Notes under the pieces: generated by a model | Databases searched by the model: none | What the model was told of the DNA's origin: nothing | The model's input: the letters and a program-made list of their open reading frames with translations, nothing else | Program-made: the position numbers and the translations under genes | DNA from: an uncultured Methanosarcinales archaeon | GTDB taxonomy: Archaea; Nanobdellota; Nanobdellia; Woesearchaeales; CAYZNE01 | Assembly: GCA_964405295.1 (NCBI GenBank) | Contig: CAYONI010000002.1 | Location: forward strand, 59,133-123,132 | Length of the DNA: 64,000 nt | Reading direction: 5' to 3' | Shown: positions 2,999 to 56,412 of the stretch, piece by piece | Layout of the letters: every line of letters begins with the position of its first letter | Numbering within the stretch: the stretch's first letter is position 1

Positions 2999-5028
2999 TG
3001 AGTCCGCCAGCTGAACCTGCAAGAAAACTTGAAGAAAGGGTTAATTTTAATGTGTCTGAAGATTTTCAATCTGATAAAATTTTAACTGCTGAAGAGGTTG
3101 CTTTAATTGAGAAAGAAAAGTATATTCTTGGTGAATATGTTAATTCAGGTAATACAAGGGATGTTTTTAGAGCTATTTTTGTGAAAAACGGATTACGTTT
3201 ACCAAGAGTTATTAAAATTGCTAAAAGAAAAAAGGATATTAATCTTGATTCTGTTTGCACTTTGATGAATCTTTCACGACTACCCGAAGGCAATCCTAAT
3301 GTTAACGAATTAGAGGCGCAAAACTCTATTGGTGATCATCCACATATTGCTTCTGTTACTGATAGTTTTTATGTTAATGAAAGGCATGTTGTTGTAGAAG
3401 AGTATGGTGATGGGCCGGATATACAAAGGGATGTTGAAAAAAGGCTAAAAGTTAATGATCTTTATTCTAAAGAAAAATTTATGGATATTTTTAACCAATG
3501 TCTTGATTTAATGAAGGATATGTATTCTGGTCAGGACTATAGATTACATAGAGATATTAAGCCAAGTAATATTATTATTAACAAACTTGGAAGAGTTGTG
3601 TTTACTGATTTTCAAAATGCTAAAAAAGGAGATAATATTGAATTCCAACTTTGGCCTACTAGAGGGGGAACACCTTATACTTCGCCTGATTTACTTAACT
3701 CTTTGTTTACTGGTGAAGAAGCTCATGCTTCAAGGCAAACAGAATTTTACGCTTTAGCTAATACTATGTATTTTGCTTTAACAGGTAAAGAAGCATTTAA
3801 TTATAAAATTAAATTTGATCCTGCTAATGGTAATCCTTTGGAAATAGGTGATAAAACATTTAAGGTCTCTCTTTTTGATGGTGAGAATAAGGTTGATGAA
3901 ATAACATCTGAGATACATCGATCTAATAAGAAGAAAGCTCTTAAAAAATTATCTAAGTATTATCAAAAGTTATTTTCTAAGGCACTTTCATTTGATGATA
4001 CTTTTTTGGATGTTGATGAATTTAGAGAAGAGTTGAAGCAAACTGATAAGCGTTATAAATTTAATTTAGCTGTAAAAAAATATACTAAACCTGCACTTTG
4101 GATTTTGGGTTTGGGGATACCTTTATATTTGGTTCTTAAATTTGCAACGCCTGTTGAATTAAAAGAATATGATTATTCTCCAACACTTAATGATTTGTTA
4201 AGAACTAAAACAAGGATTGTTAGTGAAGTTAATGTTGGTCCACAGGTAATTGCAGGGGGGATCCATATTCCTCTTGATATGGCTACTGATTTAAAACCAT
4301 ATTTAGAAGATGTAAAAAAAGCTTTGATTGATCCTAAATTCATTGAATATTCTAAATTATCTGATTTTATTTCCTCTAGGTCTATCCCAAATGTTAATAT
4401 TGGAAATGAGTTGAATGCAATAATATTTTCTGCTTATAATTTTAGTCAGAAAAAGAAAGTTAATTTGTTTGGTTTTAAAAGAAGTAAAAATTTTTTAGTT
4501 CCTATTGATTTTGTTAAGGCTCGTTTATACAGGGAAAATAATGGAGATAACATGCACTTAAATATGCAATTATATAAGGAACTTAATGATAATAGAATGG
4601 AAATTGTAAATGTAAAAGATTATTTGGTTATGTCTACAAACTTTATAGATTTAAAAGATGGATTTTTAAGGGTTGAAGATGTTTTTGCGAAATATTTTTG
4701 TAGTGATGAAGAAATAATGTTCGCAAAACAAAGATCAGATAATCAAAATTATTTTCCTGTTTTTAAAGAAAACGAAGATGATAAAACTACCAGTCGTTAT
4801 GATGGTTATTCAACTCATCTTCCTTCAAAGAAAAAAGAATTAATTAACCGTGCTCTTGCTTTTTATCTTACTGTTGATGATGAGGGGAATTATAAACAAC
4901 TTATTGAACCTGATTCAACAAAGGTTTATGATTATACTGTTAAAGAAACTCAGAAAAAATCTATGGATGCACAATTTTATGCAGCGGATAATAATCTCAG
5001 AAGAAAGCTGGGAATAAGAAAATTTTAA
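2998..5028 (+). CDS. membrane-anchored Hanks-type Ser/Thr protein kinase-like protein with C-terminal extracytoplasmic domain
   Basis: Gly-rich loop LGEYVNSGNTRDVF, catalytic loop HRDIKPSNIIIN, DFQ in place of DFG, and TPYTSPD (APE-like). A single TM helix (PALWILGLGIPLYLVLKF) around residue 365 is followed by a ~290 aa domain. GTG start. Confidence 0.6.
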   Translation: MSPPAEPARKLEERVNFNVSEDFQSDKILTAEEVALIEKEKYILGEYVNSGNTRDVFRAIFVKNGLRLPRVIKIAKRKKDINLDSVCTLMNLSRLPEGNPNVNELEAQNSIGDHPHIASVTDSFYVNERHVVVEEYGDGPDIQRDVEKRLKVNDLYSKEKFMDIFNQCLDLMKDMYSGQDYRLHRDIKPSNIIINKLGRVVFTDFQNAKKGDNIEFQLWPTRGGTPYTSPDLLNSLFTGEEAHASRQTEFYALANTMYFALTGKEAFNYKIKFDPANGNPLEIGDKTFKVSLFDGENKVDEITSEIHRSNKKKALKKLSKYYQKLFSKALSFDDTFLDVDEFREELKQTDKRYKFNLAVKKYTKPALWILGLGIPLYLVLKFATPVELKEYDYSPTLNDLLRTKTRIVSEVNVGPQVIAGGIHIPLDMATDLKPYLEDVKKALIDPKFIEYSKLSDFISSRSIPNVNIGNELNAIIFSAYNFSQKKKVNLFGFKRSKNFLVPIDFVKARLYRENNGDNMHLNMQLYKELNDNRMEIVNVKDYLVMSTNFIDLKDGFLRVEDVFAKYFCSDEEIMFAKQRSDNQNYFPVFKENEDDKTTSRYDGYSTHLPSKKKELINRALAFYLTVDDEGNYKQLIEPDSTKVYDYTVKETQKKSMDAQFYAADNNLRRKLGIRKF

Positions 5029-6027: not shown

Positions 6028-6819
6028 ATGTTATCACTTAAGAGTGATTTCAAAGAGGTTAAAATGAAAGAAATAAAACAAATAAAACAAACACAAGTTG
6101 AAAATTTGGTTTCAAACACCATGTTTGCTTATACTAGTTTGTTAGATCTAGATGGTGTTCAATATGAAATGTCTGAATCTTCTGAAAAATTTAAAGGAGT
6201 GGCAAAAGCAACTTTAAACACTGCAGCAGAATTAGGAACTATTGTAGATACATTAATTGGTTTAAATTTACAAACACATAGTGTTACTACAAAGTCCATA
6301 AGAAAATCAAAAGTTTATGATGCAAATGTTAGTGACGAACAAGTAGAAGAAGATTTCAAAGCTTATAAGGTTGAAGTAGAAACAGAAAGAACAAATATAA
6401 ATCAATATTTTGATGGTGAAATAAAGCAAAAGAAATCAAGTGTTGACGAATTTAAAACAGTAATGAAAGATCTTAGAGAAGCTTATACTTCACAAGAGGT
6501 TACTAAAGTTGAAGTCGCAGTTGATGCAGTAAGAAAATCTGCAATTTGGTCAAATGAGATCCAAGTTGATTCATTGTTAGGTGCTGTTAAAAGTATGCAA
6601 ACTTTGGCTACTAAAATTTATGACGGTGGTTTTGAAGATGTGGAAGATGTTAAAAATATTTTAACTGATGCAATTGAAGATTCAAAAGTTGTTGAACAAA
6701 ATTATTTCTTGGGACTTTTCAAAGCAGGGTCTAAGATGGTTGAACCGATTGGTCAAACTTACAAGGGGTCAATAGATTCTGGGGTTATTGCAGAAGAACT
6801 TATGCGGATTAACGCATAA
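6028..6819 (+). CDS. hypothetical acidic coiled-coil protein
   Basis: 263 aa, E/K/V-rich, no recognisable motif; flanked by the 22-bp direct repeat. Confidence 0.4.
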   Translation: MLSLKSDFKEVKMKEIKQIKQTQVENLVSNTMFAYTSLLDLDGVQYEMSESSEKFKGVAKATLNTAAELGTIVDTLIGLNLQTHSVTTKSIRKSKVYDANVSDEQVEEDFKAYKVEVETERTNINQYFDGEIKQKKSSVDEFKTVMKDLREAYTSQEVTKVEVAVDAVRKSAIWSNEIQVDSLLGAVKSMQTLATKIYDGGFEDVEDVKNILTDAIEDSKVVEQNYFLGLFKAGSKMVEPIGQTYKGSIDSGVIAEELMRINA

Positions 6820-12420: not shown

Positions 12421-13479
12421 ATGCTAGAATTTTTATCAGGATATGTGGTGTGGAATAATAGTTTATTAAACTATATATATTTTATTCTGTTTGTTGCATT
12501 TTCCTTTTTAGTTGCAAAATTTATTGCATTTATATTCAATAAATATTTACATGCTATGGCTAAGAAAACTAAAACACAAATTGATGATATACTTGCTGAT
12601 GCTTTTGAAAAGCCAATACTTTTCACATTGTTTTTCTTAGGTATTTATTTTGCTTTTAAGTATTTGGTTTTGTCGCCTGCATTTGAGAATGTATTAAGTA
12701 AAATTTTTACTGTAATTACAACTATTCTTATCACTTGGGGTGTTACGAAATTATCACATTCTGCTCTTGAAATATATTGGATGCCAAAGGCAAAGAAATC
12801 AAAAAATACTGTTGATGATAATTTAATTCCTGTTGTTAAGTCATTGGTTTCGTGGGTAATATGGGCAATTTCTTTAATATTTATATTAAGTAATCTTGGT
12901 ATCAATGTTACTTCGTTAGTTGCAGGTCTTGGAATTGGAGGTCTTGCAATTGCATTTGCACTGCAAGGAGTATTTGTAGATATTTTTGCGTCTATATCTA
13001 TATATTTAGATAAGCCTTTTCATGTTGGAGACTATATTGTTATCGGTGCTCATTCTGGAACAGTAAAAAAAATTGGCATCAAAACAACAAGAATTGAAAC
13101 TTTACAAGGAGAAGAACTTGTTGTTTCAAATAAAGAACTTACTGAAACAAGAATTCAGAATTATAAAAAGATGAAAAAGAGAAGAGTTGTATTTAAACTA
13201 GGTGTTGAATACGGGACTTCTCCTAAAAAACTTAAAAATATCCCTATTATTATTAAAAAGATTATAGATCGAATTGGTAAAGTTGATTTTGATAGAGCAC
13301 ACTTCACAGGATTTGGTGATTTTTCTTTAGATTTTGAGATAGTTATGTTTATAGACACTCAAGATTATGCAATCTATAAAGATATTCAGCAAAAAGTAAA
13401 TCTAGGTATTGTTGAAGCATTTGCAAAAGATAAAATAGAAATGGCATTTCCTACACAAACAATTTTTGTTAAGAAGTGA
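12421..13479 (+). CDS. MscS-family mechanosensitive channel
   Basis: Pore helix plus beta domain GLGIGGLAIAFALQGVFVDIFASISIYLDKPFHVGDYIVIGAHSGTVKKIGIKTTRIETLQGEELVVSN. ATG at 12421 is preferred over the ORF-track start at 12400. Confidence 0.85.
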   Translation: MLEFLSGYVVWNNSLLNYIYFILFVAFSFLVAKFIAFIFNKYLHAMAKKTKTQIDDILADAFEKPILFTLFFLGIYFAFKYLVLSPAFENVLSKIFTVITTILITWGVTKLSHSALEIYWMPKAKKSKNTVDDNLIPVVKSLVSWVIWAISLIFILSNLGINVTSLVAGLGIGGLAIAFALQGVFVDIFASISIYLDKPFHVGDYIVIGAHSGTVKKIGIKTTRIETLQGEELVVSNKELTETRIQNYKKMKKRRVVFKLGVEYGTSPKKLKNIPIIIKKIIDRIGKVDFDRAHFTGFGDFSLDFEIVMFIDTQDYAIYKDIQQKVNLGIVEAFAKDKIEMAFPTQTIFVKK

Positions 13480-27814: not shown

Positions 27815-28333
27815 ATGGATGTAAAAAATGATAAGTATGCACTAGTTTCGGTTGTTGCTATTATTGCTATTGTTGGGATTGTTGCGATTCTTGTAGGTAG
27901 TAATAAGGTTTCTGTTGTTTCTTCTCCTGAAGAATTAGGTTATGCTAATACTGGTGGGCAAGTAATTAGAATTAGTGTGGTTGATAAGTCTGTTGAATCT
28001 GATTTTGAAGAATCTGATTTAACAAAATATTTGTTATCTGAAAATATTGTGAAGAAAGTTATGTTAAATGGTTGTGATACTCTTGAAATTTTAAATCATG
28101 ATAGATTAGTTGAAACAGGGCCTGGTGTATTTACTGTATTTGATTCTAATGGTGAACCTCTTAGTGACGAATCACATGGCTATTGGCAGTGTAGTTGTTA
28201 TATATATAATAATGCTGGGCCGTTTGGTTGTGATCCTGTTGGACCGCAGGAATGTGAAATGTGGGGTACTTGCACTGAATGTCGTGGAAGATTTGTTGGT
28301 GGTGCAAGTTCATTTGGTATTTCTCATAGATAA
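27815..28333 (+). CDS. membrane-anchored Cys-rich secreted protein
   Basis: N-terminal TM/signal; C-terminal WQCSCYIYNNAGPFGCDPVGPQECEMWGTCTEC. Confidence 0.4.
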   Translation: MDVKNDKYALVSVVAIIAIVGIVAILVGSNKVSVVSSPEELGYANTGGQVIRISVVDKSVESDFEESDLTKYLLSENIVKKVMLNGCDTLEILNHDRLVETGPGVFTVFDSNGEPLSDESHGYWQCSCYIYNNAGPFGCDPVGPQECEMWGTCTECRGRFVGGASSFGISHR

Positions 28334-42072: not shown

Positions 42073-42112
42073 TTATCTGTATGGAAGTAAAATATCCCTC
42101 CCCCCAGACTTG
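42073..42112. repeat. 40-bp direct repeat, tRNA-proximal copy
   Basis: Spans the tRNA-Tyr T-loop to the discriminator base plus 22 nt of 3' flank. Confidence 0.8.
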
Positions 42113-42220
42113 AACCGGGGACCTTTCGGTTACGGCTGGTTATGTTTCATTTCTGTCCTTTCGGGTTAAGATCGCATAACTTCTACAGCCGAACGCTCTA
42201 GCCAACTGAGCTAGGGAGGG
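42095..42220 (-). tRNA. tRNA-Tyr(GTA) with 52-nt bulge-helix-bulge intron at 37/38
   Basis: Minus-strand cloverleaf read by eye. Acceptor CCCTCCC/GGGAGGG gives C1-G72, the archaeal Tyr identity element. D arm TAGCTCAGTTGGCTAGAGCG; anticodon loop CTGTAGA. The intron 3' end CAGCCG pairs with CGGCTG of the anticodon stem-loop. T arm CCCGGTTCAAGTCTGGG; CCA is not encoded. Confidence 0.8.
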
Positions 42221-48958: not shown

Positions 48959-49015
48959 TATTAGATTTTAGAGTGATTTATTTAAAAAGCTTATAGATTT
49001 TTGTTATGTTAAATT

Positions 49016-49202
49016 TAACATCAGGATTAAGAGAAGTTTCTGGAGCGAATTTGGGAAATTTCAGCAGGAAATTTCCTCTTAATTGCTGTTATGTGTTTTT
49101 TCTGCAAGAAAAAAAGCCGAAGGCTCAGTTATTTTCATGTTAATTAATTTCGTCTGAAGAGAGTCTATATATCCGAAGGACGAGGGGGAGTCCAGATTTT
49201 TT
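49016..49202 (+). repeat. structured intergenic repeat unit A (attC-like imperfect hairpin plus GC-rich 3' module)
   Basis: TTAACATCAGGATTAAGAGAAG ... CTCTTAATTGCTGTTATGT, then CCGAAGGACGAGGGGGAGTCC and an oligo-T; homologous to units B-F. Confidence 0.65.
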
Positions 49203-49240
49203 GTTTCTTTTATTAAAAAAAGAAAGTTTACACTAAGATA

Positions 49241-49320
49241 TTAGGGAGGGATTCGAACCCTCGAACCCACTAAGGGAGCAGATTGGTAATCTGCCGAGTT
49301 TGACCACTTCTCTACCCTCA
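49241..49320 (-). pseudogene. tRNA-like fragment (no valid acceptor stem)
   Basis: Minus strand has a D-arm-like segment and stem-loop GCAGA-TTACCAA-TCTGC. Its T arm GAGGGTTCGAATCCCTC shares a 17-mer TCGAGGGTTCGAATCCC with tRNA-Arg and an 11-mer ATCCCTCCCTA with tRNA-Tyr. The 5' and 3' ends cannot pair. Confidence 0.3.
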
Positions 49321-49348
49321 TATAAAATGTATGAGAATTAACTTGAGG

Positions 49349-49819
49349 TTATATTTTTTCTTCAAATAGTTCAATTAATAAATCATATACAGATTTGAAT
49401 TTTTTAAATCTTTTAGGTTCTTTAATTGATTTTTTTATAAACTCAATGTCCATTTCTTTTATTTTATTAATCATATCTCTACTTAAATTTGGTTTTTTAT
49501 CTTTGTATATTGGCCTGACTTTATGACATCCTAAGAAATCTTCAATTTCTTCTTCATTAAAATAAATAAATTTTTTAAGACCTTCCATTTCTGAGGTTAT
49601 AGTTTTCTCTTTTTTAAAAACATCTGAATCGAAAATAAATATAGTTTCGCTATCGATTCCCTTTAATTGTTGAAATTTTTCATCCATCTTTTGAGATTTA
49701 GTTATGGCATTATTTAAATCTCCTATTGCTTTAGGATGAAATTTTAATGTGTAATTACTGGATACAAATTTATTACCTTTTAAAGCCTTTAAAATAATTT
49801 TTTTCAGAAGGACCTTCAT
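49349..49819 (-). CDS. small partner protein of the AAA_21 ATPase (hypothetical)
   Basis: 156 aa, 20 bp downstream of the ATPase on the same strand; contains ETIFIFDSD acidic motif. Confidence 0.35.
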   Translation of the reverse strand: MKVLLKKIILKALKGNKFVSSNYTLKFHPKAIGDLNNAITKSQKMDEKFQQLKGIDSETIFIFDSDVFKKEKTITSEMEGLKKFIYFNEEEIEDFLGCHKVRPIYKDKKPNLSRDMINKIKEMDIEFIKKSIKEPKRFKKFKSVYDLLIELFEEKI

Positions 49820-49839
49820 AGAAAATGTAAATTACTTTT

Positions 49840-51045
49840 TTAATCTTCTTTATAGACATTTGGGAATCCTCCTAATACACCCTCTCTATAATAATCACCA
49901 TAGTTTTTGTTAATTTTGGGGTTATTCTTGACTATATTATGAAGATTAATTATTTTACTAACAGAATCTTCTTTTTCAATTATATTTATTTGATCACTTC
50001 TTAAATAATTAAGGATTTCTGGTTGATGAGTTGTAAATAATAATTGAGATTTATTGTCTTTTTTTGTAAAGTAATTTATAATAAATTCAACTATTTCAAT
50101 ATTAAAAGATGTTTCAATTTCATCATAAAGTATAATGGAATCCTTATTCAATTTGAATAGTGTGAAAAATAGTAATATGAACTTTTTAGTTCCACTTGAT
50201 TCTCCATTGAAATTTATTTTTAAATCTGCTTTATTGTGTTTATGTATTAAAATTAAATCTGTTACTGGCACTTTTTTTGTGGGTTGTTTTATAATTTCTT
50301 CATTATTTATTTTATATTCAATTTCTTCTCTAACTGATTTAACTAATTCTAAATCTTTTATCGAAAAATCAGCATATGTTAGAACATCTAATAATTCTTC
50401 CTTTAATCCTGAATCTTTTAACAAAGAGAAATCGGGGGGTTGATTAAATAAATTATTCGCTACAAATAGTTTAGTAAAAAAATCATATATTGGTTTTAAT
50501 GTGGCTGAGTTTAATTGCACCGCTCTTGATAACATTAAAGTTTGAGGAATGACACTTTTAGATAATATTTTTAATTCTTTTTCATATTTTCGATTGCTGA
50601 ATTCGAATTTTTTATTAGTTTTATTTTCGTTTCTTAAAAAAATTTCAGTCGGTTTTTGTGTTTGATAAACTACTGCATACTCTTTTATAATTTTTTTATT
50701 AGTATACGAGAATCCATAAATGTATTTTTTATTGTTTGAAAAAAATGTAATCTCAAATTCTGTTGGTTTATCTGGCGTGCTAATAAATGGTGAATATTTT
50801 ATATTTGTATCTATATTATGTTTTTGGGAATTTAAAACCATTTCTTTCATAAAATTTAATGCTGAAAGTAGAGATGTCTTTCCAGATCCATTAACTCCTA
50901 CGAGTCCAGATATTTTTAAAGTATCTATATTATTTTGCTGATTAATAAATTGTTCTCCTCTACTTTCTTTTGATTTTTTTTCAAATTTCAAAATTTCTTC
51001 ATTTTTATATGAATTAAAGTTTTTTAGTTTAAATTCGATTATCAT
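49840..51045 (-). CDS. AAA_21/AAA_15-type ABC-like ATPase (defence-associated family)
   Basis: Walker A GLVGVNGSGKTS, signature-like NGESSGTKKF, Walker B ILYDEIETS, H-loop LLFTTHQPE. Confidence 0.7.
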   Translation of the reverse strand: MIIEFKLKNFNSYKNEEILKFEKKSKESRGEQFINQQNNIDTLKISGLVGVNGSGKTSLLSALNFMKEMVLNSQKHNIDTNIKYSPFISTPDKPTEFEITFFSNNKKYIYGFSYTNKKIIKEYAVVYQTQKPTEIFLRNENKTNKKFEFSNRKYEKELKILSKSVIPQTLMLSRAVQLNSATLKPIYDFFTKLFVANNLFNQPPDFSLLKDSGLKEELLDVLTYADFSIKDLELVKSVREEIEYKINNEEIIKQPTKKVPVTDLILIHKHNKADLKINFNGESSGTKKFILLFFTLFKLNKDSIILYDEIETSFNIEIVEFIINYFTKKDNKSQLLFTTHQPEILNYLRSDQINIIEKEDSVSKIINLHNIVKNNPKINKNYGDYYREGVLGGFPNVYKED

Positions 51046-51261
51046 ATGGTTAAGAAATCAATCAATATATATAAATGTTGTTGTTTTTTACACTAATTTT
51101 GCTTTATCTTTTAGATATTGGCAGTAAATGAGAAAATATTGCAATTTTGTTGTGTTTCATAATTGATTTCGAATAAATTTATTGTGAGCCTAAATGTGTG
51201 TAGCACGGACTCTCCCTCTTTTGGTTCTTTTTCTAAAAGAACATAAAGTGAAAATTCGATT

Positions 51262-51433
51262 GAGTATAACATCGCGATTAAGAGAAGTTTTTGCGAAGCA
51301 AAAATTTGGATGGAAGAAACTGCAAGTTTCTGGAATCTCTTAATCGCTGTTATGTCTGTCGAAACTTGTTTCGACCAAGGGTTAGTGCAACGGTCGGCGA
51401 AGCCGAAACCCGCAGAGTTTTTCTTGAGTCCCG
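51262..51433 (+). repeat. structured intergenic repeat unit B
   Basis: GAGTATAACATCGCGATTAAGAGAAG pairs with TCTCTTAATCGCTGTTATGT (2-nt bulge). Internal hairpin TTTTTGCGAAGCAAAAA, then GTGCAACGG..GCGAAGCCGAAACCC, ending in TTTTTCTTGAGTCCC. Confidence 0.7.
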
Positions 51434-51468
51434 TTAAATATTTAAACTATTAAACTATATAGAGTTAT

Positions 51469-52251
51469 ATGGCAGATATATTATTAACAAATGATGATGG
51501 TTTCTCTTCCCAAGGATTTCTTGTTTTATTAAATGAATTAAAGAAAGAACATAAAGTAATAGGAGTTGCTCCTAAAAATGAACGAAGTTGGATTGGAAAA
51601 TCAATTAGTGCTCATAATGAAGTAATTTTAGAAAAAGTAAAGAGTAATCTTTATTCATTAACAGGAACTCCAGCAGATTGTACTCAGGTAGGAATCTATG
51701 ATGTTTTGAAGAGGAAACCTGATTTGGTTGTTTCAGGAATAAATTTAGGTTTAAATGCTGGACATGGTAGAATTTTAAGTTCAGGAACAATTGGTGCTGC
51801 AATGGAAGCTTCAATTGATGGAGTTAAATCAGTTTCAACTTCTATACATATTCCAATTGAATTGAAAAAAAGTTTAGATTTACATGATAAAAAAAATAGA
51901 AAAATATTCATTAATGCTGCAAAAATAACTTGTAAAGTGATTAAGATTTTTATGAATGCTGATTATGGAACTAGTACTGATCTTTTATCATTAAATATTC
52001 CTTTTGATGCAACAATCGATAGTCCAATTGAAATAACTGTTCCAGATAGACAACCATTAGGGCAGTTATTTTTCAAGAAAGGGAAATTTCACAAACTGAA
52101 GATTCCACCATTATTATTTGAATCTTCTTCAAAGGGAACAGATTTAAGAGCATTATATGAAAATAAAATATCCCTAACTCCTATTAGTTTAGAACTTGTA
52201 TCTAGAAATTCTTTAAAAAACCTTAAAACCATCATTAAAAAGAAGTGGTAG
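51469..52251 (+). CDS. surE: 5'/3'-nucleotidase SurE
   Basis: ILLTNDDGFSSQG N-terminus and overall SurE fold signature. Confidence 0.85.
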   Translation: MADILLTNDDGFSSQGFLVLLNELKKEHKVIGVAPKNERSWIGKSISAHNEVILEKVKSNLYSLTGTPADCTQVGIYDVLKRKPDLVVSGINLGLNAGHGRILSSGTIGAAMEASIDGVKSVSTSIHIPIELKKSLDLHDKKNRKIFINAAKITCKVIKIFMNADYGTSTDLLSLNIPFDATIDSPIEITVPDRQPLGQLFFKKGKFHKLKIPPLLFESSSKGTDLRALYENKISLTPISLELVSRNSLKNLKTIIKKKW

Positions 52252-52260
52252 GGACTCAAG

Positions 52261-52507
52261 AAAAATTAGACATAACATCAGGATTTGGAGAAGTCGTGCG
52301 TAGCACGATTTGGGTGGAGAAGTCTGCAAGACTTTGTAACCTCATAATCCTTGTTAAATCCTTCCGATAGGAACGAGGGATAACTGCAAGTGGTTTTTTG
52401 CGAAGCAAAAAAATCCTGAAGAGTAATATTTTCATTTCTATATCAATATTGAACAAAGCGAGTCTAAATGTCCTTTGGGACTGGGGCTGTTTGTTTTTTA
52501 TCAAAAT
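52261..52507 (+). repeat. structured intergenic repeat unit C
   Basis: Starts GGGACTCAAGAAAAA (inverted copy of unit B's end). CATAACATCAGGATT ... AATCCTTGTTAAAT stem, CTGCAAG boxes, hairpin TTTTTTGCGAAGCAAAAAAA; ends GGGGCTGTTTGTTTT. Confidence 0.7.
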
Positions 52508-52538
52508 CTTTTTATATATTAGATAACTCTTCAAGTTT

Positions 52539-53123
52539 ATGGTTGAATTTACAACAGAAAATCTTGGAAGAATACTTATTAATCGACTTAGAGAAAATAA
52601 TAATTTTGACGAAATATTATCAATAGTGAAAAGCAATTCCAGAGGGAATATTTATCTCGTTGGGGGAACTGTTAGTCGAACTTTAGCTAGTGAGTTATAT
52701 GGTGGAGAACAGAAAAATCAAGATTTTGATTTTGTTGTTGATGTATTAAATAGTGATTTAAAGATTCCAAAAGGTTGGGTGGTTACACACCATAAATTTG
52801 ACAATCCAACATTCAAGAAAGATGATCTTGAAATAGATCTATTTCCGTTATCTGACCACCAATATATCAAAAATAATAAACTGAAACCAACTATTGAAAA
52901 CTTTTTGGCAGGAGTTCCATTTTCAATTCAATCACTCGTTTTTGATATAAAAAATGAAAGATTAATTGGAGATGATGGAATTCAAGCTTTAAAGAATCGT
53001 AAATTCAAAGTTCATAACATAGATTCTGCAAAAGATGTTGCAAAACGTAAAGGAATTTCAATAAATGAACGAATGTTGCAAAAAGCTAAAAGTATGAACT
53101 TTGATATAATTCCATTCGATTAA
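52539..53123 (+). CDS. nucleotidyltransferase-fold (Pol beta superfamily) protein
   Basis: IYLVGGTVSR ... DFDFVVD resembles the hG[GS] ... DxD NTase motif. Confidence 0.4.
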   Translation: MVEFTTENLGRILINRLRENNNFDEILSIVKSNSRGNIYLVGGTVSRTLASELYGGEQKNQDFDFVVDVLNSDLKIPKGWVVTHHKFDNPTFKKDDLEIDLFPLSDHQYIKNNKLKPTIENFLAGVPFSIQSLVFDIKNERLIGDDGIQALKNRKFKVHNIDSAKDVAKRKGISINERMLQKAKSMNFDIIPFD

Positions 53124-53352
53124 AACAAACAGCCCCTTTTTCTAGAAATGAAAATTTTATTGTATATAACATCAGGATTAAGAGAAGTTTTTGCGTAGCA
53201 AAAATTTGGATGGAGCCTGCAAGGAGGAATCTCTAAATCCTTGTTAGTTGGGAAGACTGCAAGTCGACCGACCGAAGGGACAGTTTTTTAATTACTTAAC
53301 TTATATCAATTTCGAACGTAGTGAGTCTATTGTTTAGAAAAAGAGGGGTTTT
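53122..53352 (+). repeat. structured intergenic repeat unit D
   Basis: Starts AAAACAAACAGCCCC (inverted copy of unit C's end). TATAACATCAGGATTAAGAGAAG, hairpin TTTTTGCGTAGCAAAAA, AATCCTTGTTAGTT; ends AAAAAGAGGGGTTTT. Confidence 0.7.
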
Positions 53353-54067
53353 AATTTTTGCCTATATTCCACAACATTTTGAAATATTTTCTGAAAGTAT
53401 CTGCAAATTCTTTTCCATTAATCATTATTGAGATTATTTCGTTCTCATCAAGTTTTCCTATTATTAATTTGTTTTCATAAATTATAAATCCTACTGATGA
53501 AGAGAAATTTTCAGGAAGAAATTTATAATCAATCTTTGTGAAAAAATTTATTCGTTTAGATATTTCTTTTGTTTTTGGTTGAAGTAATTTTATATTCAAT
53601 TTTGAAAATTTATCCTGAATATATTTTGAAAATTTAAAACTTTCAACAAGATGTAAGCCACCACCAATCCAGTAAACTGTTTTATTGGTTTCGATTGCAT
53701 CTTCGAGAATTGTTTTTATTCCTTGTTTTCCCATTATAATATCAACTTTTGTATTATTGAAATTTGTATTTTGAAGGTTTTTGAGTGTGGGCATAATATT
53801 TTCTAAAGTAAATAATTTTTCATCAATTAATTGCCTTAAAGTTTTTACATTATTCGCATTAAAAAATTTAGTTCCCTTAATTATATTATATGTAACTAAT
53901 CCTTTAGTTATTAGAAGTTCTAAGTTATCATAAATAGTTCTTCTATTTATTCCTGTATTTTTTGAAAGTTTTACTGTGCTTTGTTGTGGAACTTTAAGTA
54001 ATGAGATATATATTTTTGATTCTATTTCTCTGAGACCAAGTTTTTTTAATTCGTTTTCTAGTTCCAT
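53351..54067 (-). CDS. TrmB-family transcriptional regulator
   Basis: N-terminal wHTH LGLREIESKIYISLLKVPQQSTVKLSKNTGINRRTIYDNLELLITKGLV. Confidence 0.7.
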   Translation of the reverse strand: MELENELKKLGLREIESKIYISLLKVPQQSTVKLSKNTGINRRTIYDNLELLITKGLVTYNIIKGTKFFNANNVKTLRQLIDEKLFTLENIMPTLKNLQNTNFNNTKVDIIMGKQGIKTILEDAIETNKTVYWIGGGLHLVESFKFSKYIQDKFSKLNIKLLQPKTKEISKRINFFTKIDYKFLPENFSSSVGFIIYENKLIIGKLDENEIISIMINGKEFADTFRKYFKMLWNIGKN

Positions 54068-54155
54068 GTTTATTTAGAATAGCTTTAAATATATAAAGTT
54101 TACGGGGGAATCCCCACACATTGATTTAAATTTGGTTATTAATTGCTACTTTTTA

Positions 54156-54818
54156 ATGGAAAAACATATATTATTTATGCCTGATGGAAATCGAAGATAT
54201 GCGACAAGAGAAAATATTTCTCCGGAAAAAACTTATCAAAAAGGAGCTAAATCATTAGAATTATTTAGCAATTTCTTTCTACTGGAAAATGATTGGACTC
54301 AATTAACCATGCATTTTATGTCAAAATATACCCATGAAAGAGATGATGGAAGTTTAAATCCAATCTATGGTGCTATGATAAAAGAATTTACTTATTTGCA
54401 CGATAGTAGTTATTTTGATAAAAATAAGATTAAATTTCAATGGATTGATCATTCAAGTAAATTGCCTGCTGAGGTTGTGGAAATTTGTCAATCATTAGAA
54501 GAAAAGACAAAAACCGGAGTTAAATTATCTTTAAATTTATTAGGCTATGATTTAGAAACTGACGAAAGAAATGCTTTTGAACAATCAAAGAATTATGATG
54601 AGTTTAAAGCTATTAGACTAATTTCAGATATAGATTTAGTAATTAGAACTACTGAAATGAGACCTTCAAAAGGCCCAGTTTATGCAATGGCTCAATCTCA
54701 AATGTTACTTCTTCAAAAATTAAATCCTGAATTAGAACGTACTGATTTAGAGAAGATATTGCAAGAATATAATAGTTTAGTGGAATATAGGCAAACCACA
54801 AATCCAATTCATAAATAA
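54156..54818 (+). CDS. divergent cis-prenyltransferase (UppS-like) paralog
   Basis: FMPDGNRRYATRE matches the cis-IPTase DGNRR(Y/W)A motif and an IRTT segment is retained, but the C-terminal substrate motifs are degenerate. ATG at 54156 preferred. Confidence 0.5.
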   Translation: MEKHILFMPDGNRRYATRENISPEKTYQKGAKSLELFSNFFLLENDWTQLTMHFMSKYTHERDDGSLNPIYGAMIKEFTYLHDSSYFDKNKIKFQWIDHSSKLPAEVVEICQSLEEKTKTGVKLSLNLLGYDLETDERNAFEQSKNYDEFKAIRLISDIDLVIRTTEMRPSKGPVYAMAQSQMLLLQKLNPELERTDLEKILQEYNSLVEYRQTTNPIHK

Positions 54819-55080
54819 AACCTCTCTTTTTCTTTTGTTAAGTAATTAAGAAATTGCAACTAACATCGGGCTTAAGGGAAGTTCAATTTCCTCGGAAAAA
54901 TTCTCCTCGTGAAACAGAGCTGAGAATTTTTTCAGAGCTGAAATTGAATTTGGGTGTAGTGAGGTGCAACCGAACGAAACCCTTTAAGCCCTATTAGTTT
55001 CGTCCGAATACTTGGAGGACTTGATTTTTAGTGCAACGATGCCGAAGGCAAAAAATCAAAGTCGTGTAGGGGCAAAATTA
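54817..55080 (+). repeat. structured intergenic repeat unit E
   Basis: CTAACATCGGGCTTAAGGGAAG pairs with CCTTTAAGCCCTATTAG (compensatory GGGCTT/AAGCCC relative to AGGATT/AATCCT in other units). GTGCAACCGAACG and GTGCAACGATGCCGAAGG modules; ends GGGGCAAAATTA. Confidence 0.65.
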
Positions 55081-55116
55081 GGAAGGTTTATAAAATACCT
55101 TTAATTCCACTAAATT

Positions 55117-55425
55117 ATGAGAATAGATTATCAACATAACTTGACACAAGAAGAAGCATACGGAAAAATAAATAATCTTTTAACAGATTTACAGAAACAG
55201 TATGCTGATAAAATAAGTAACCCTCAAACAAGTTGGAATTCCGAACATACAAGAATGGATTATAGTATGGAAATTATGGGATTCAAAACTAAAGGACAGG
55301 TTACTTTAAATGATAGTCAAGTTAGTTTAGAAGGAAAACTTCCATTCATGGCTAAAATGTTTAGTGGAAAAATTGAAGCAATGGTTAAAACACAACTAGA
55401 TGATTTACTTGCTTGTGATTTCTGA
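55117..55425 (+). CDS. PHA_gran_rgn-like small protein (polyhydroxyalkanoic-acid-system family)
   Basis: C-terminal VSLEGKLPFMAKMFSGKIEAMVKTQLDDLL resembles the family's conserved tail. Confidence 0.4.
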   Translation: MRIDYQHNLTQEEAYGKINNLLTDLQKQYADKISNPQTSWNSEHTRMDYSMEIMGFKTKGQVTLNDSQVSLEGKLPFMAKMFSGKIEAMVKTQLDDLLACDF

Positions 55426-55433
55426 ATATAATT

Positions 55434-55490
55434 TAATTTTGCCCCGTAACGATTGAGTATAACATATATTAGGCCTAGTTTGTTAGTGCC
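55434..55490 (+). repeat. mini repeat unit F
   Basis: TAATTTTGCCCC (inverted copy of unit E's end), then GAGTATAACAT ... TAGGCCTA ... TTGTTAG hairpin. Confidence 0.5.
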
Positions 55491-55512
55491 TAATTATAGT
55501 TAATATATGCTA

Positions 55513-55531
55513 ATTCGGAAGAATTCCGAAT
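55513..55531. promoter_or_regulatory. hairpin ATTCGGAA-GAA-TTCCGAAT 45 bp upstream of the recombinase gene
   Basis: 8-bp perfect inverted arms with a 3-nt spacer. Confidence 0.35.
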
Positions 55532-55575
55532 GGCTAGGGCTTAATATTATTAAGATTAAGTAGATAACTTCTTAT

Positions 55576-56412
55576 ATGGATTATATGTTAGATGAAGCTA
55601 AAAAACAGGATTATCTGCAGAGAATTGCTGATGAGTGTAAATTAAGGGGTTTTAGCAGGCAAACTTTGAAAGCTTATTCTTATTGGATTGCAAAATATTT
55701 GGATTTTATTATTAAAAATAGGTTTAATTTGGGAAATTCTAGTGTTAGGTATTATTTCCTAAGTTTAGATTTGAGTGTGAATTCTTCAAGATTATGCTAT
55801 GCAGCTCTAAGATTTTTCTTCGCTAATATTCTGAACAGACCTTTTACAACCGATGAAATTCCTATTAAGAAGAAAGAAAAAACTTTGCCTAAAGTATTAT
55901 CTAAGCAACAAATTAAATTAATATTAAATGAAACCAAAAATCTTAAACATAAACTAGTTATTGAGGTGCTTTATTCAACTGGGTTGAGATTGCAAGAATT
56001 AATTAATCTTAAAAGAGCTGATATTGATTTTGATAATAATACTTTGTTTGTTAGAAAAGGCAAAGGTAAGAAGGATAGACTCACAATTATTTCTGAAAAT
56101 ATTAAATTAGATTTATTAAAATATTATAGTCAATACGAATTTAAAACAAATTATGTGTTTGAAGGTAGAAAGGGTAAATATTCTAAAAAGTCTGTTCAAT
56201 TAATTCTACACAATACAAGTAAAAAACTTAAATTTAGAATTCATCCTCATATGTTAAGACACTCTTTTGCAACTCATTTATTAGAGCAGGGAACTGACAT
56301 AAGAATTATACAGAAGCTTCTTGGCCATTCTGATCTTAACACAACAGAAATTTACACAAGAGTTGCAAATAAGAATTTAAAGAAAATCAAGAATCCTCTA
56401 GATAGTATTTAA
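55576..56412 (+). CDS. tyrosine recombinase (XerA/XerC/D family)
   Basis: C-terminal catalytic region HPHMLRHSFATHLLEQGTDIRIIQKLLGHSDLNTTEIYTRV (R..H..R..Y); N-terminal core-binding domain. Confidence 0.85.
   Translation: MDYMLDEAKKQDYLQRIADECKLRGFSRQTLKAYSYWIAKYLDFIIKNRFNLGNSSVRYYFLSLDLSVNSSRLCYAALRFFFANILNRPFTTDEIPIKKKEKTLPKVLSKQQIKLILNETKNLKHKLVIEVLYSTGLRLQELINLKRADIDFDNNTLFVRKGKGKKDRLTIISENIKLDLLKYYSQYEFKTNYVFEGRKGKYSKKSVQLILHNTSKKLKFRIHPHMLRHSFATHLLEQGTDIRIIQKLLGHSDLNTTEIYTRVANKNLKKIKNPLDSI

Follow-up and report, generated by a model that had tools for sequence, protein, structure and literature searches.

A candidate integron-like cassette platform in DPANN archaea, with predicted folded single-stranded DNA sites and a linked XerA-family recombinase

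The stretch of DNA described here (contig CAYONI010000002.1, positions 59,133 to 123,132; called the window, 64,000 nucleotides in all) carries a series of genes that are separated by structured repeat units and followed by the gene for a tyrosine recombinase. The explanation that we favor, and consider likely though well short of certain, is that this locus is an integron-like chromosomal cassette platform made up of folded single-stranded DNA (ssDNA) sites and a recombinase of the XerA family. The locus is probably neither a true integron nor a pdif system, and a small-RNA family is unlikely. The broader proposal, to which we give an even chance, is that the DPANN archaea (Woese-, Pace- and Nanoarchaeota) possess a previously undescribed integron analogue in which an insertion-less XerA-family enzyme takes up and shuffles promoter-bearing cassettes by means of large folded ssDNA sites, with a long-range helix (P0) joining neighboring sites. 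All of the evidence is computational and the assessment of novelty is provisional; no account of a Xer-linked cassette array in DPANN archaea turned up in full-text literature searches.

Integrons provide the classic case of site-specific recombination that depends on the structure of a single strand, and how they arose from Xer-like enzymes has yet to be settled. If the proposal is true, either the insertion characteristic of the integron integrase IntI is dispensable for the integron lifestyle or that lifestyle evolved twice. The system would also help explain how ultra-small DPANN genomes gain and exchange accessory and defense genes, and it would offer biochemistry a compact new recombinase-site pair.

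Distribution and fold of the repeat unit

Two scans, one of species-representative genomes and one of metagenomes, gave at least 120 matches each and placed the element in more than 240 public contigs; viral contigs gave no matches. Among the matches listed, the labeled hosts are nearly all Woese-, Pace- or Nanoarchaeota, and the odd host labels probably reflect mis-binned contigs. Many matches lie at contig ends, and there is about one array per metagenome-assembled genome (MAG). A covariance model (R1) trained on 53 diverse copies, from other organisms and the present window, identified 154 units in 100 loci among these matches, and the units share one orientation in every locus that has at least two. 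The densest array is found in locus L211 (9922-14585), where at least eight units occupy 4.7 kb and one unit type appears twice, at 13335 and 14460. In the window, R1 gives 57-88 bits (E 1e-10 to 1e-17) for five units, A to E, and 15-21 bits for their reverse complements. All five are on the plus strand, and the rest of the 64 kb has no comparable score. The sequence TAACATCRSGMTTWRGRGAAGT occurs five times in the 64-kb window (49016, 51267, 52273, 53167 and 54861), solely between 49.0 and 54.9 kb and on the plus strand only, against an expectation of 0.02.

RNAalifold and explicit pair counts agree on the fold of the unit, which is 90-150 nt in size. After a closing box of 4-5 bp (TAACA/TGTTA) come a 2-nt bulge (TC) and P1, a stem of 10 bp with arms that vary in sequence while complementarity is kept. 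Next comes a three-way junction with essentially zero unpaired bases, where P3 has a GG/CC base and P2 an AAGU/AUUU base. On the 3' side of TGTTA lie a further 60-120 nt of small leader hairpins, including CTGCAAG, GTGCAAC and CCGAAGG boxes, and some units finish in T-runs. In 150 model-aligned copies 95.5% of cells are paired, with double changes in 19 of 24 pairs. None of 500 shuffles reached the observed covariation score, and pairing falls to 28-56% when the partner is slid by 1-3 columns as a control.

The two strands of the unit differ in what they can form. G.T pairs make up 9.7% of P1 and A.C pairs 0.85%; similarly, P0 is lengthened in 27 cases by allowing G.T and in two by allowing A.C. 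This asymmetry indicates that the fold of one strand alone is under selection, which argues against a symmetric duplex site or a cruciform. The unit strand is the more stable strand in 101 of 107 units, whichever parameter set is used. A census of hairpin loops, based on minimum free energy structures (a brute-force version was too noisy), assigned 141 of 351 loops (40%) to GNA triloops closed by C-G or T-A and only two to GNRA tetraloops. DNA mini-hairpins of the GNA type are unusually stable, d(GCGAAGC) melting at 76.5 C as compared with 39 C for r(GCGAAAGC), and such hairpins, including CCGAAGG, occur at single-strand initiation sites (PMC13037366). On the folded strand, G is modestly enriched in the flanking chromosome (89 of 139 flanks, p ~0.001), which fits frequent placement of that strand as the lagging-strand template, with gene orientation a possible confounder.

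The long-range helix P0 and the make-up of a cassette

The end of each unit is complementary to a stretch just 5' of the next unit, on the far side of the intervening gene or genes. The helix that the two would form, P0, is 12-20 bp long and has a different sequence in every case. The best P0 helix was measured in 139 pairs of successive units from other organisms; its median length is 15 bp, compared with 10 bp for mismatched partners, and 76% of the pairs exceed the 95th percentile of the control. The 3' strand of P0 stops 4-5 nt short of TAAC in 60 of the 105 significant cases. Its 5' strand often starts with AGT and its 3' strand finishes with ATT, so that P0 closes with A-T, G.T and T-A pairs; the ATT before TAAC is conserved at 90-93% despite being absent from the search pattern. 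To our knowledge, no known cassette system has a counterpart of such a cassette-private helix.

The P0 strands abut or overlap stop codons, and start codons lie 26-80 nt within the loop, behind TATA-like boxes. Cassette genes have their own promoter-like boxes and stand in either orientation, with no bias among the enclosed open reading frames (ORFs) relative to the unit strand (25 minus, 19 plus); a cassette may hold several genes or a tRNA-like gene, and six loops are without any ORF of at least 60 aa. On the folded strand a cassette reads C-ATC, unit interior, TGTTA, leader hairpins, AGT, P0 5' strand, promoter and gene(s), P0 3' strand and ATT-G-N4-TAA. The cargo is diverse and accessory, with 96 Pfam families among 91 ORFs, including DNA methylases, AAA_21 ATPases, ParE toxins, nucleotidyltransferases, GmrSD, NUDIX and transporters. 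Among the matches listed, the cargo genes of the window almost never recur beside other arrays.

Some cassettes contain a second conserved motif, module 2 (ATCAATTTCGAAC..AGTGAGTCTA), as an internal loop between an outer and an inner P0 helix. It is located at 49138-49181, 51170-51206, 52441-52482 and 53301-53335 of the window and at 2320-2350 of locus L067. A related sequence, GAACGNAGTGAG, also builds the P2 arm in some units.

The alternative that survives best, itself unlikely, is that the units are a structured non-coding RNA family or belong to one long processed transcript, with P0 looping out the genes in the manner of rRNA processing stems or of the complementary leaders of the split tRNA genes of Nanoarchaeum, and with the adjacency of the recombinase incidental or secondary. 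Conserved G.U pairs in a fold that is strand-specific and whose three-way junction is fully paired would suit an RNA, as would helices that reach over kilobases, the high conservation of unit sequence between species and the T-runs that end some units. However, a search of Rfam 15 matched tRNAs alone, the units having no match at gathering scores or at E up to 5, and the 30 nt 5' of TAAC contain no conserved promoter-like element. The genes have their promoters inside the loops, and over half of the ORFs there run antisense to the units; the abundance of GNA triloops and near absence of GNRA tetraloops do not favor RNA, and neither do the exchange of modules exactly at TAAC and the geometry of the recombinase gene (27/27), which are described below. 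A ribozyme or splicing role was rejected after inspection by eye, the junction showing no hammerhead core and P0 no bulge-helix-bulge motif.

Boundaries of modules shared between species

Comparisons between species point to cassettes as discrete mobile units that are bounded at one point and would be inserted next to the recombinase. Loci L055 and L211 have one complete cassette in common, at 86% identity, extending from ATTG..TAAC to the next TAAC; past it, L055 continues into the terminal hairpin and the recombinase and L211 into at least two further units. A module that runs exactly from TAAC to TAAC is common to L005, L012 and L245. Likewise, a two-gene module common to L045, L102 and L107 stops exactly after TAACAT and is followed by three distinct sequences to the right. 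Among blocks of at least 88% identity, 16 right ends fall at TAAC. The break points gather at the TAAC edge of the unit and are not spread over the conserved block.

Some units have collapsed. Examples read CATAA joined to ATCCTTGTTA, TATAA to TCGCTGTTCA, TTAA to GCCCTGTTAG and TAACATCAGGAT to CCTTGTTA. Collapsed units, of which TTTAACATCAGG joined to ATCCTTGTTATA is another, are without the three-way junction and resemble 28-bp dif-like palindromes; they are seen in L102 (~2290-2320 and ~2945-2975), L041 (~6150-6175), L045 (reverse complement, near 3870) and L218 (~4615). They may be scars of hairpin deletion through short TAA homologies or minimal functional sites. Collapsed units explain an apparent second crossover at TGTTA. 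Both TAACAT and TGTTA were considered as crossover points, but in a larger sample most TGTTA boundaries proved to be collapsed units, and a single point between TAA and C was adopted.

In the population of the window (L121-L127), assemblies from several samples break in the 150-nt interval that separates the PHA-like gene from the recombinase gene, despite an overlap of ~265 nt between the contigs. Unresolved variation at the terminal site may account for these breaks.

Next in plausibility, and likewise unlikely, is the view that the units are passive dispersed repeats, like miniature inverted-repeat transposable elements (MITEs) or REP sequences or decayed dif-like sites by xerA, with shuffling by homologous recombination in blocks of ~200 nt. 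The units do offer long, conserved and portable homology, their interiors can be chimeric or collapsed, and assemblies break at them. Homologous recombination does not readily account for the concentration of break points at the TAAC edge, nor for single co-oriented arrays in which the position of the recombinase is fixed. Strong selection for pairing, including that of the cassette-specific P0, would be unexpected for passive repeats, and no transposase was identified among the families that recur beside the arrays.

The linked recombinase and the terminal site

A tyrosine recombinase is the sole recurrent neighboring protein of the arrays among the matches listed. Homologues are present in 27 of the 240 loci and, in these, the gene is always on the unit strand (27/27) and almost always 3' of all units (26/27); an ATT-N(4-6)-TAAC box lies at most 260 nt upstream in 26 of the 27. 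In many loci, as in the window, a private palindrome directly follows this box. No transposase was identified among the recurrent neighbors, and the next-largest cluster (11 loci) carried no annotation.

By sequence comparison, the recombinase of the window is XerA-like and without the integron-integrase insertion. Its best match in the PDB is XerA of P. abyssi (E 1.2e-47, full length), and its score of 217.3 bits against the NCBIfam model XerA_Arch (NF040815) is just below the cutoff of 220. It falls well below the cutoffs of the integron-integrase models (186.4 vs 265 bits for TIGR02249 and 123 vs 435 for NF011946). Residues 176-221 (45 aa) stand opposite residues 173-263 of V. cholerae IntI4 (90 aa), the segment that contains the insertion. 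The IntI-specific insertion has been described as essential for integron function (PMC8138268).

Such an enzyme might act on double-stranded sites, with IMEX-like (integrative mobile elements exploiting Xer) or pdif-like cassettes standing in tandem at a dif site by xerA, the TAACAT and TGTTA boxes serving as Xer arms and the fold being accessory. This third alternative is improbable. Beyond the XerA-like recombinase itself, it draws on the 12+6+12 geometry of some terminal sites, on collapsed sites such as TTTAACATCAGGATCCTTGTTATA that resemble an 11-6-11 dif, and on TTATGTTAAAT at 49004, which is identical to the XerD arm of E. coli dif. It also draws on a switch near 56 kb, where GC skew, positive from 2000 to ~56 kb, becomes flat or negative to 64000 and genes turn from mostly plus to mostly minus right at the recombinase. 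The switch had suggested a replication terminus, which was rejected because neither the skew nor the orientation flips at the recombinase in 13 other loci. The excess of G.T over A.C pairs, by which one strand's fold is selected, is contrary to duplex sites, as are the 70-190 bp that would separate the arms in duplex and the co-orientation of sites that alternate in pdif modules. In Thermococcales, moreover, dif is not adjacent to xerA (PMC2958812). A canonical dif was also sought elsewhere in the window. A second copy of TTATGTTAAAT, at 28059, is inside an ORF and has no inverted partner, and the 64 kb contain no dif-like TAACA palindrome or other dif-like site with TAACA arms.

Proposed mechanism and its difficulties

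In the favored explanation, an integron-like platform of folded ssDNA sites, the unit strand would fold when single-stranded, for example on the lagging-strand template. The XerA-like enzyme would bind the stem formed by TAACA/TGTTA and P1, and strand exchange would take place between TAA and C. New cassettes would enter at the terminal site beside the recombinase. P0 would pinch off the gene(s), and by looping them out it would place the two sites that flank a cassette no more than ~100 nt apart. Were a cassette excised as a single-stranded circle, P0 would close the site into a compact multi-helix fold, and the circle would carry a junction consisting of the P0 3' strand, ATTGNNNNTAA joined to CATC, and the unit of the same cassette. 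The GNA mini-hairpins may exclude single-strand-binding protein or prime second-strand synthesis. In a more radical variant, transcripts of the units may guide, by way of the P0 strand, the pairing of the two ends of a cassette. Gene capture of the integron type would have arisen independently in the DPANN archaea, or else their system would be related to the Xer-like ancestor of integrons.

Several observations weigh against this scheme. The P0 helices span 0.6-4.8 kb, a reach more readily imagined for RNA than for the replication intermediates of archaea, whose Okazaki fragments are short. Near-invariant G.U wobbles, a pattern typical of RNA, stand at the base of P2 (AAGU/AUUU, 144 of 150 copies) and of P0 (AGU/AUU). 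The case for mobility is built on about six independent mosaics between species, as read from their sequences, and no recombination event is observed. The pair L041 and L108 forms an exception, having two full and differing unit interiors upstream of a near-identical module; here, and partly in L005 and L012, the unit interior is far more diverged than the rest of the module. Within the window's population, three proteins of the array (recombinase, PHA-like and 194-aa) were looked up by exact match, and the public contigs so retrieved all have the same array. The terminal hairpin was significant in only 4 of 14 scorable sites under a strict contiguous-stem test in which the regular expression mis-picked some boxes. 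Finally, the recombinase may be the only Xer protein of the cell and hence a housekeeping enzyme.

Organization of the array in the window

The window has a G+C content of ~29% and contains, on the minus strand at 42095-42220, a tRNA gene with a 55-nt anticodon-loop intron, and on both grounds it looks archaeal. The features below are on the plus strand unless stated otherwise. A preliminary description made from this DNA alone had proposed one repeat family, units A-F. Its hairpin tips (TAACA...TGTTA), internal TTTTTGCGAAGCAAAAA hairpin and CTGCAAG and CCGAAGG boxes are all present, further copies in related MAGs do exist (the >240 contigs above), and units A-E belong to the R1 family, but F has only an ATTG-N4-TAAC box and a simple hairpin. 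Nor does every spacer hold a unit, as had been stated; those at 49323-49348, 49820-49839 and 54068-54131 have none.

The 5' edge of the array (49002-49015) was read directly and consists of two TGTTA boxes (TTGTTATGTTAAAT, with TTATGTTAAAT located at 49004) that touch the TTTAAC box of unit A with no cassette between. These boxes are probably remnants of collapsed sites, and sites collapsed in this way are also present in other loci. Module 1 of unit A (49007-49094; R1 69.5 bits, E 5e-13) comprises the ATT-box, TAACA, TC bulge, P1, three-way junction and TGTTA, as shown by its fold. The leader hairpins after it (49095-49126), recognized by sequence and in the GNA-triloop census, include CTGCAAG and GCCGAAGGC mini-hairpins.

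Cassette 1 has its P0 5' strands at 49127-49193, with an outer strand AGTTATTTTCA (49127-49137), module 2 (AATTTCG..GAGTCTA) and an inner strand GAGGGGGAGTCC (49182-49193). Its 3' strands at 51207-51261 comprise the inner GGACTCTCCCTC (51207-51218) and the outer TGAAAATTCGATT (51249-51261), whose terminal ATT is 5 nt ahead of TAAC. The inner helix was detected by script and the outer helix, which carries a 2-nt bulge, by eye. The cargo (49237-51045, minus strand) consists of a tRNA-like gene, a 156-aa ORF and a 401-aa AAA_21 ATPase. The first of these (49237-49322) is assigned by ARAGORN to tRNA-Gly, with an unusual anticodon, ACC. Its variable arm is long, its acceptor stem contains mismatches, and against the Rfam tRNA model it reaches only 38.8 bits. 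It may be a tRNA pseudogene or a non-canonical tRNA that forms part of the cargo. The ATPase (49840-51045) has weak matches to MAD3 of MADS and is followed by the 156-aa protein (49349-49819), which has no family match, in an arrangement like that of a two-gene defense module. AAA_21 and AriA-like ATPases are recurring cassette cargo in other loci.

Unit B has its module 1 at 51258-51355 (R1 87.8 bits, E 4e-17; fold z = -5.35). Its leader (51356-51415) contains the hairpin GTCGAAAC..GTTTCGAC and then another small junction, in which GTGCAAC and CGGCGAAGCCG form mini-hairpins, and ends in GCAG; by eye it appears near-identical to the L067 unit at 2148. The P0 5' strand of cassette 2, AGTTTTTCTTGAGTCC (51416-51431), forms a 16-17 bp helix with 52252-52267. 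Between the two is surE (51469-52251), with a TATA-like box ~25 nt 5' of its ATG, within the loop, and the 3' strand as a whole, GGGACTCAAGAAAAATT (52251-52267), overlaps the final base of the surE stop codon. Unit C follows (module 1, 52264-52359; R1 74.2 bits). The P0 5' strands of cassette 3 (52421-52497) begin with AGT at 52421 and include an outer strand (52428-52440), module 2 and the inner GGGGCTGTTTGTTTT (52483-52497). They pair with 3' strands at 53122-53155, the inner AAAACAAACAGCCCC (53122-53136) overlapping the stop codon of the cargo gene and the outer lying at 53143-53155. This gene (52539-53123) encodes a 194-aa protein that was earlier labeled an NTase fold and that has no match in Pfam or NCBIfam. 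The other gene calls (SurE, UppS-like, PHA_gran_rgn, AAA_21 ATPase and the tyrosine recombinase) were upheld.

Unit D (module 1, 53158-53249; R1 85.1 bits) precedes cassette 4, whose P0 5' strands (53281-53350) are an outer strand starting CAGT (53281-53300), module 2 and an inner strand (53336-53350) that abuts the stop codon of a TrmB-family regulator gene (53351-54067, minus strand). A divergent promoter region separates this gene from that of an UppS-like prenyltransferase (54132-54818, plus strand). The 3' strands (54819-54856) pair inner with inner (54819-54833) and outer with outer (54837-54856). Unit E (module 1, 54852-54999; R1 57.5 bits, fold z = -5.8) has a long P2 arm and appears near-identical, by eye, to the L067 unit at 3946. 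In cassette 5 the P0 5' strand (55061-55082) starts with AGT at 55061, and its core GGGGCAAAATTAGG (55069-55082) pairs with 55432-55445 in the 3' strand TTTAATTTTGCCCC...ATT (55432-55454), around the gene for a PHA_gran_rgn-like protein of 102 aa (55117-55425). The stop codons of this array are thus abutted by one P0 strand and not, as first thought, by the unit hairpin; P0 had been overlooked. Genes are enclosed on both strands, half of them on the minus strand.

The array ends in the terminal site, the former unit F (55452-55502), in which ATTG-N4-TAAC is followed by a simple hairpin (TATTAGGC / GCCTAATTA) and GTTA, with no three-way junction and no R1 match. It is a candidate attI-like or primary recombination site. 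Downstream lies the gene for the XerA-family tyrosine recombinase (55576-56412; 278 aa, without the IntI insertion).

Comparison with known systems

The core of the preliminary description, a cassette array with a linked tyrosine recombinase, is supported by the co-oriented units, the recombinase 3' of them on the unit strand and the TAAC-bounded cassettes common to species. Cassette variability was found between species, as mosaics, and not within the window's own population. The recombinase has the Xer-like part of the architecture that had been in question and not the IntI-specific insertion (45 vs 90 residues), and no canonical dif was found elsewhere in the 64 kb. The more specific labels fared less well. 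The pdif-module label requires alternating orientation, and the units are co-oriented. An oligo-T-terminated small-RNA family is disfavored by the missing upstream promoter, the GNA triloops and the modular exchange between TAA and C. The integron or CALIN (cluster of attC sites lacking an integron integrase) label does not suit a recombinase that scores as XerA, sites that are larger and more conserved than attC, and promoter-bearing cassettes without orientation bias.

That the locus is a genuine integron or CALIN with attC sites of the classical kind is very improbable. The AAC...GTT tips, hairpins, array layout and tyrosine recombinase would fit it, as would the integrons on record from Nanoarchaeota MAGs (PMC9668308). 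Against it stand an enzyme without the IntI insertion that misses the TIGR02249 cutoff (186 bits vs 265) and promoter-bearing, bidirectional cassettes. In addition, the Nanoarchaeota attC assayed by Ghaly et al. in 2022 is a simple 60-nt hairpin unrelated in sequence to the units (PMC9668308), and neither 12 older element-bearing contigs nor the motif strings of the units appear in the supplements of that survey of archaea, its published IntegronFinder table included.

The system resembles CTX-phi and IMEX in that a Xer-family recombinase would act on a folded ssDNA hairpin that mimics a core site, as in the attP of CTX-phi, in the tandem accumulation beside one site, and in TAACAT/TGTTA boxes that resemble Xer arms. 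It differs in its cargo, which consists of single gene cassettes and not of phages or islands. Unlike CTX-phi, IMEX and pdif modules, it has a recombinase gene linked to the array and sites with a large conserved junction domain; the pdif sites of Acinetobacter plasmids also alternate in orientation, whereas the DPANN sites are all co-oriented. Strand-specific DNA hairpins, with short sequences beside the hairpin foot that mark the break point, are shared with IS200/IS605 and with REP/BIME-RAYT systems. In the DPANN arrays, however, no Y1/HUH transposase was identified among the recurrent neighbors and the units form one ordered array and are not dispersed. The nearest protein family to the recombinase is archaeal XerA (P. 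abyssi XerA; XerA_Arch), but a canonical dif is a single 28-bp duplex (11-6-11), whereas the DPANN gene always comes after a TAAC-hairpin site and an array of folded units.

The attC site of integrons is an imperfect hairpin of 57-141 nt, short and variable, with R''/R' (RYYYAAC/GTTRRRY) and L''/L' boxes and extrahelical bases, for which an attC covariance model serves as the detector. Of these structural features the units have the AAC/GTT tips, the hairpin and a 2-nt bulge. Bouvier in 2005 and MacDonald in 2006 reportedly placed integron cleavage between AA and C in the 5' box of the folded strand, which is the attC bottom strand and on which the integrase lies 3' of the array. A putative crossover between AA and C, together with a recombinase and primary site 3' on the folded strand, would give the DPANN arrays the topology of an integron seen from the attC bottom strand. 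Integron cassettes are mostly promoterless and co-oriented and are expressed from Pc next to attI.

Like integrons, then, the DPANN loci have one chromosomal array in which hairpin sites with AAC...GTT tips, conserved in structure and all in one orientation, separate unrelated accessory genes. The fold of a single strand is selected, with a putative crossover between AA and C in the 5' box; the tyrosine recombinase gene and a separate primary site lie on that strand, 3' of the array; and species have cassettes in common at different array positions. The differences are that the DPANN recombinase is XerA-like and without the IntI insertion, that the sites are larger, built on a three-way junction and conserved in sequence across a phylum-level group, where attC is short and variable, that every cassette has a private long-range inverted repeat (P0), and that the cassettes bring promoter-like boxes of their own, are free of orientation bias and can carry several genes or a tRNA-like gene.

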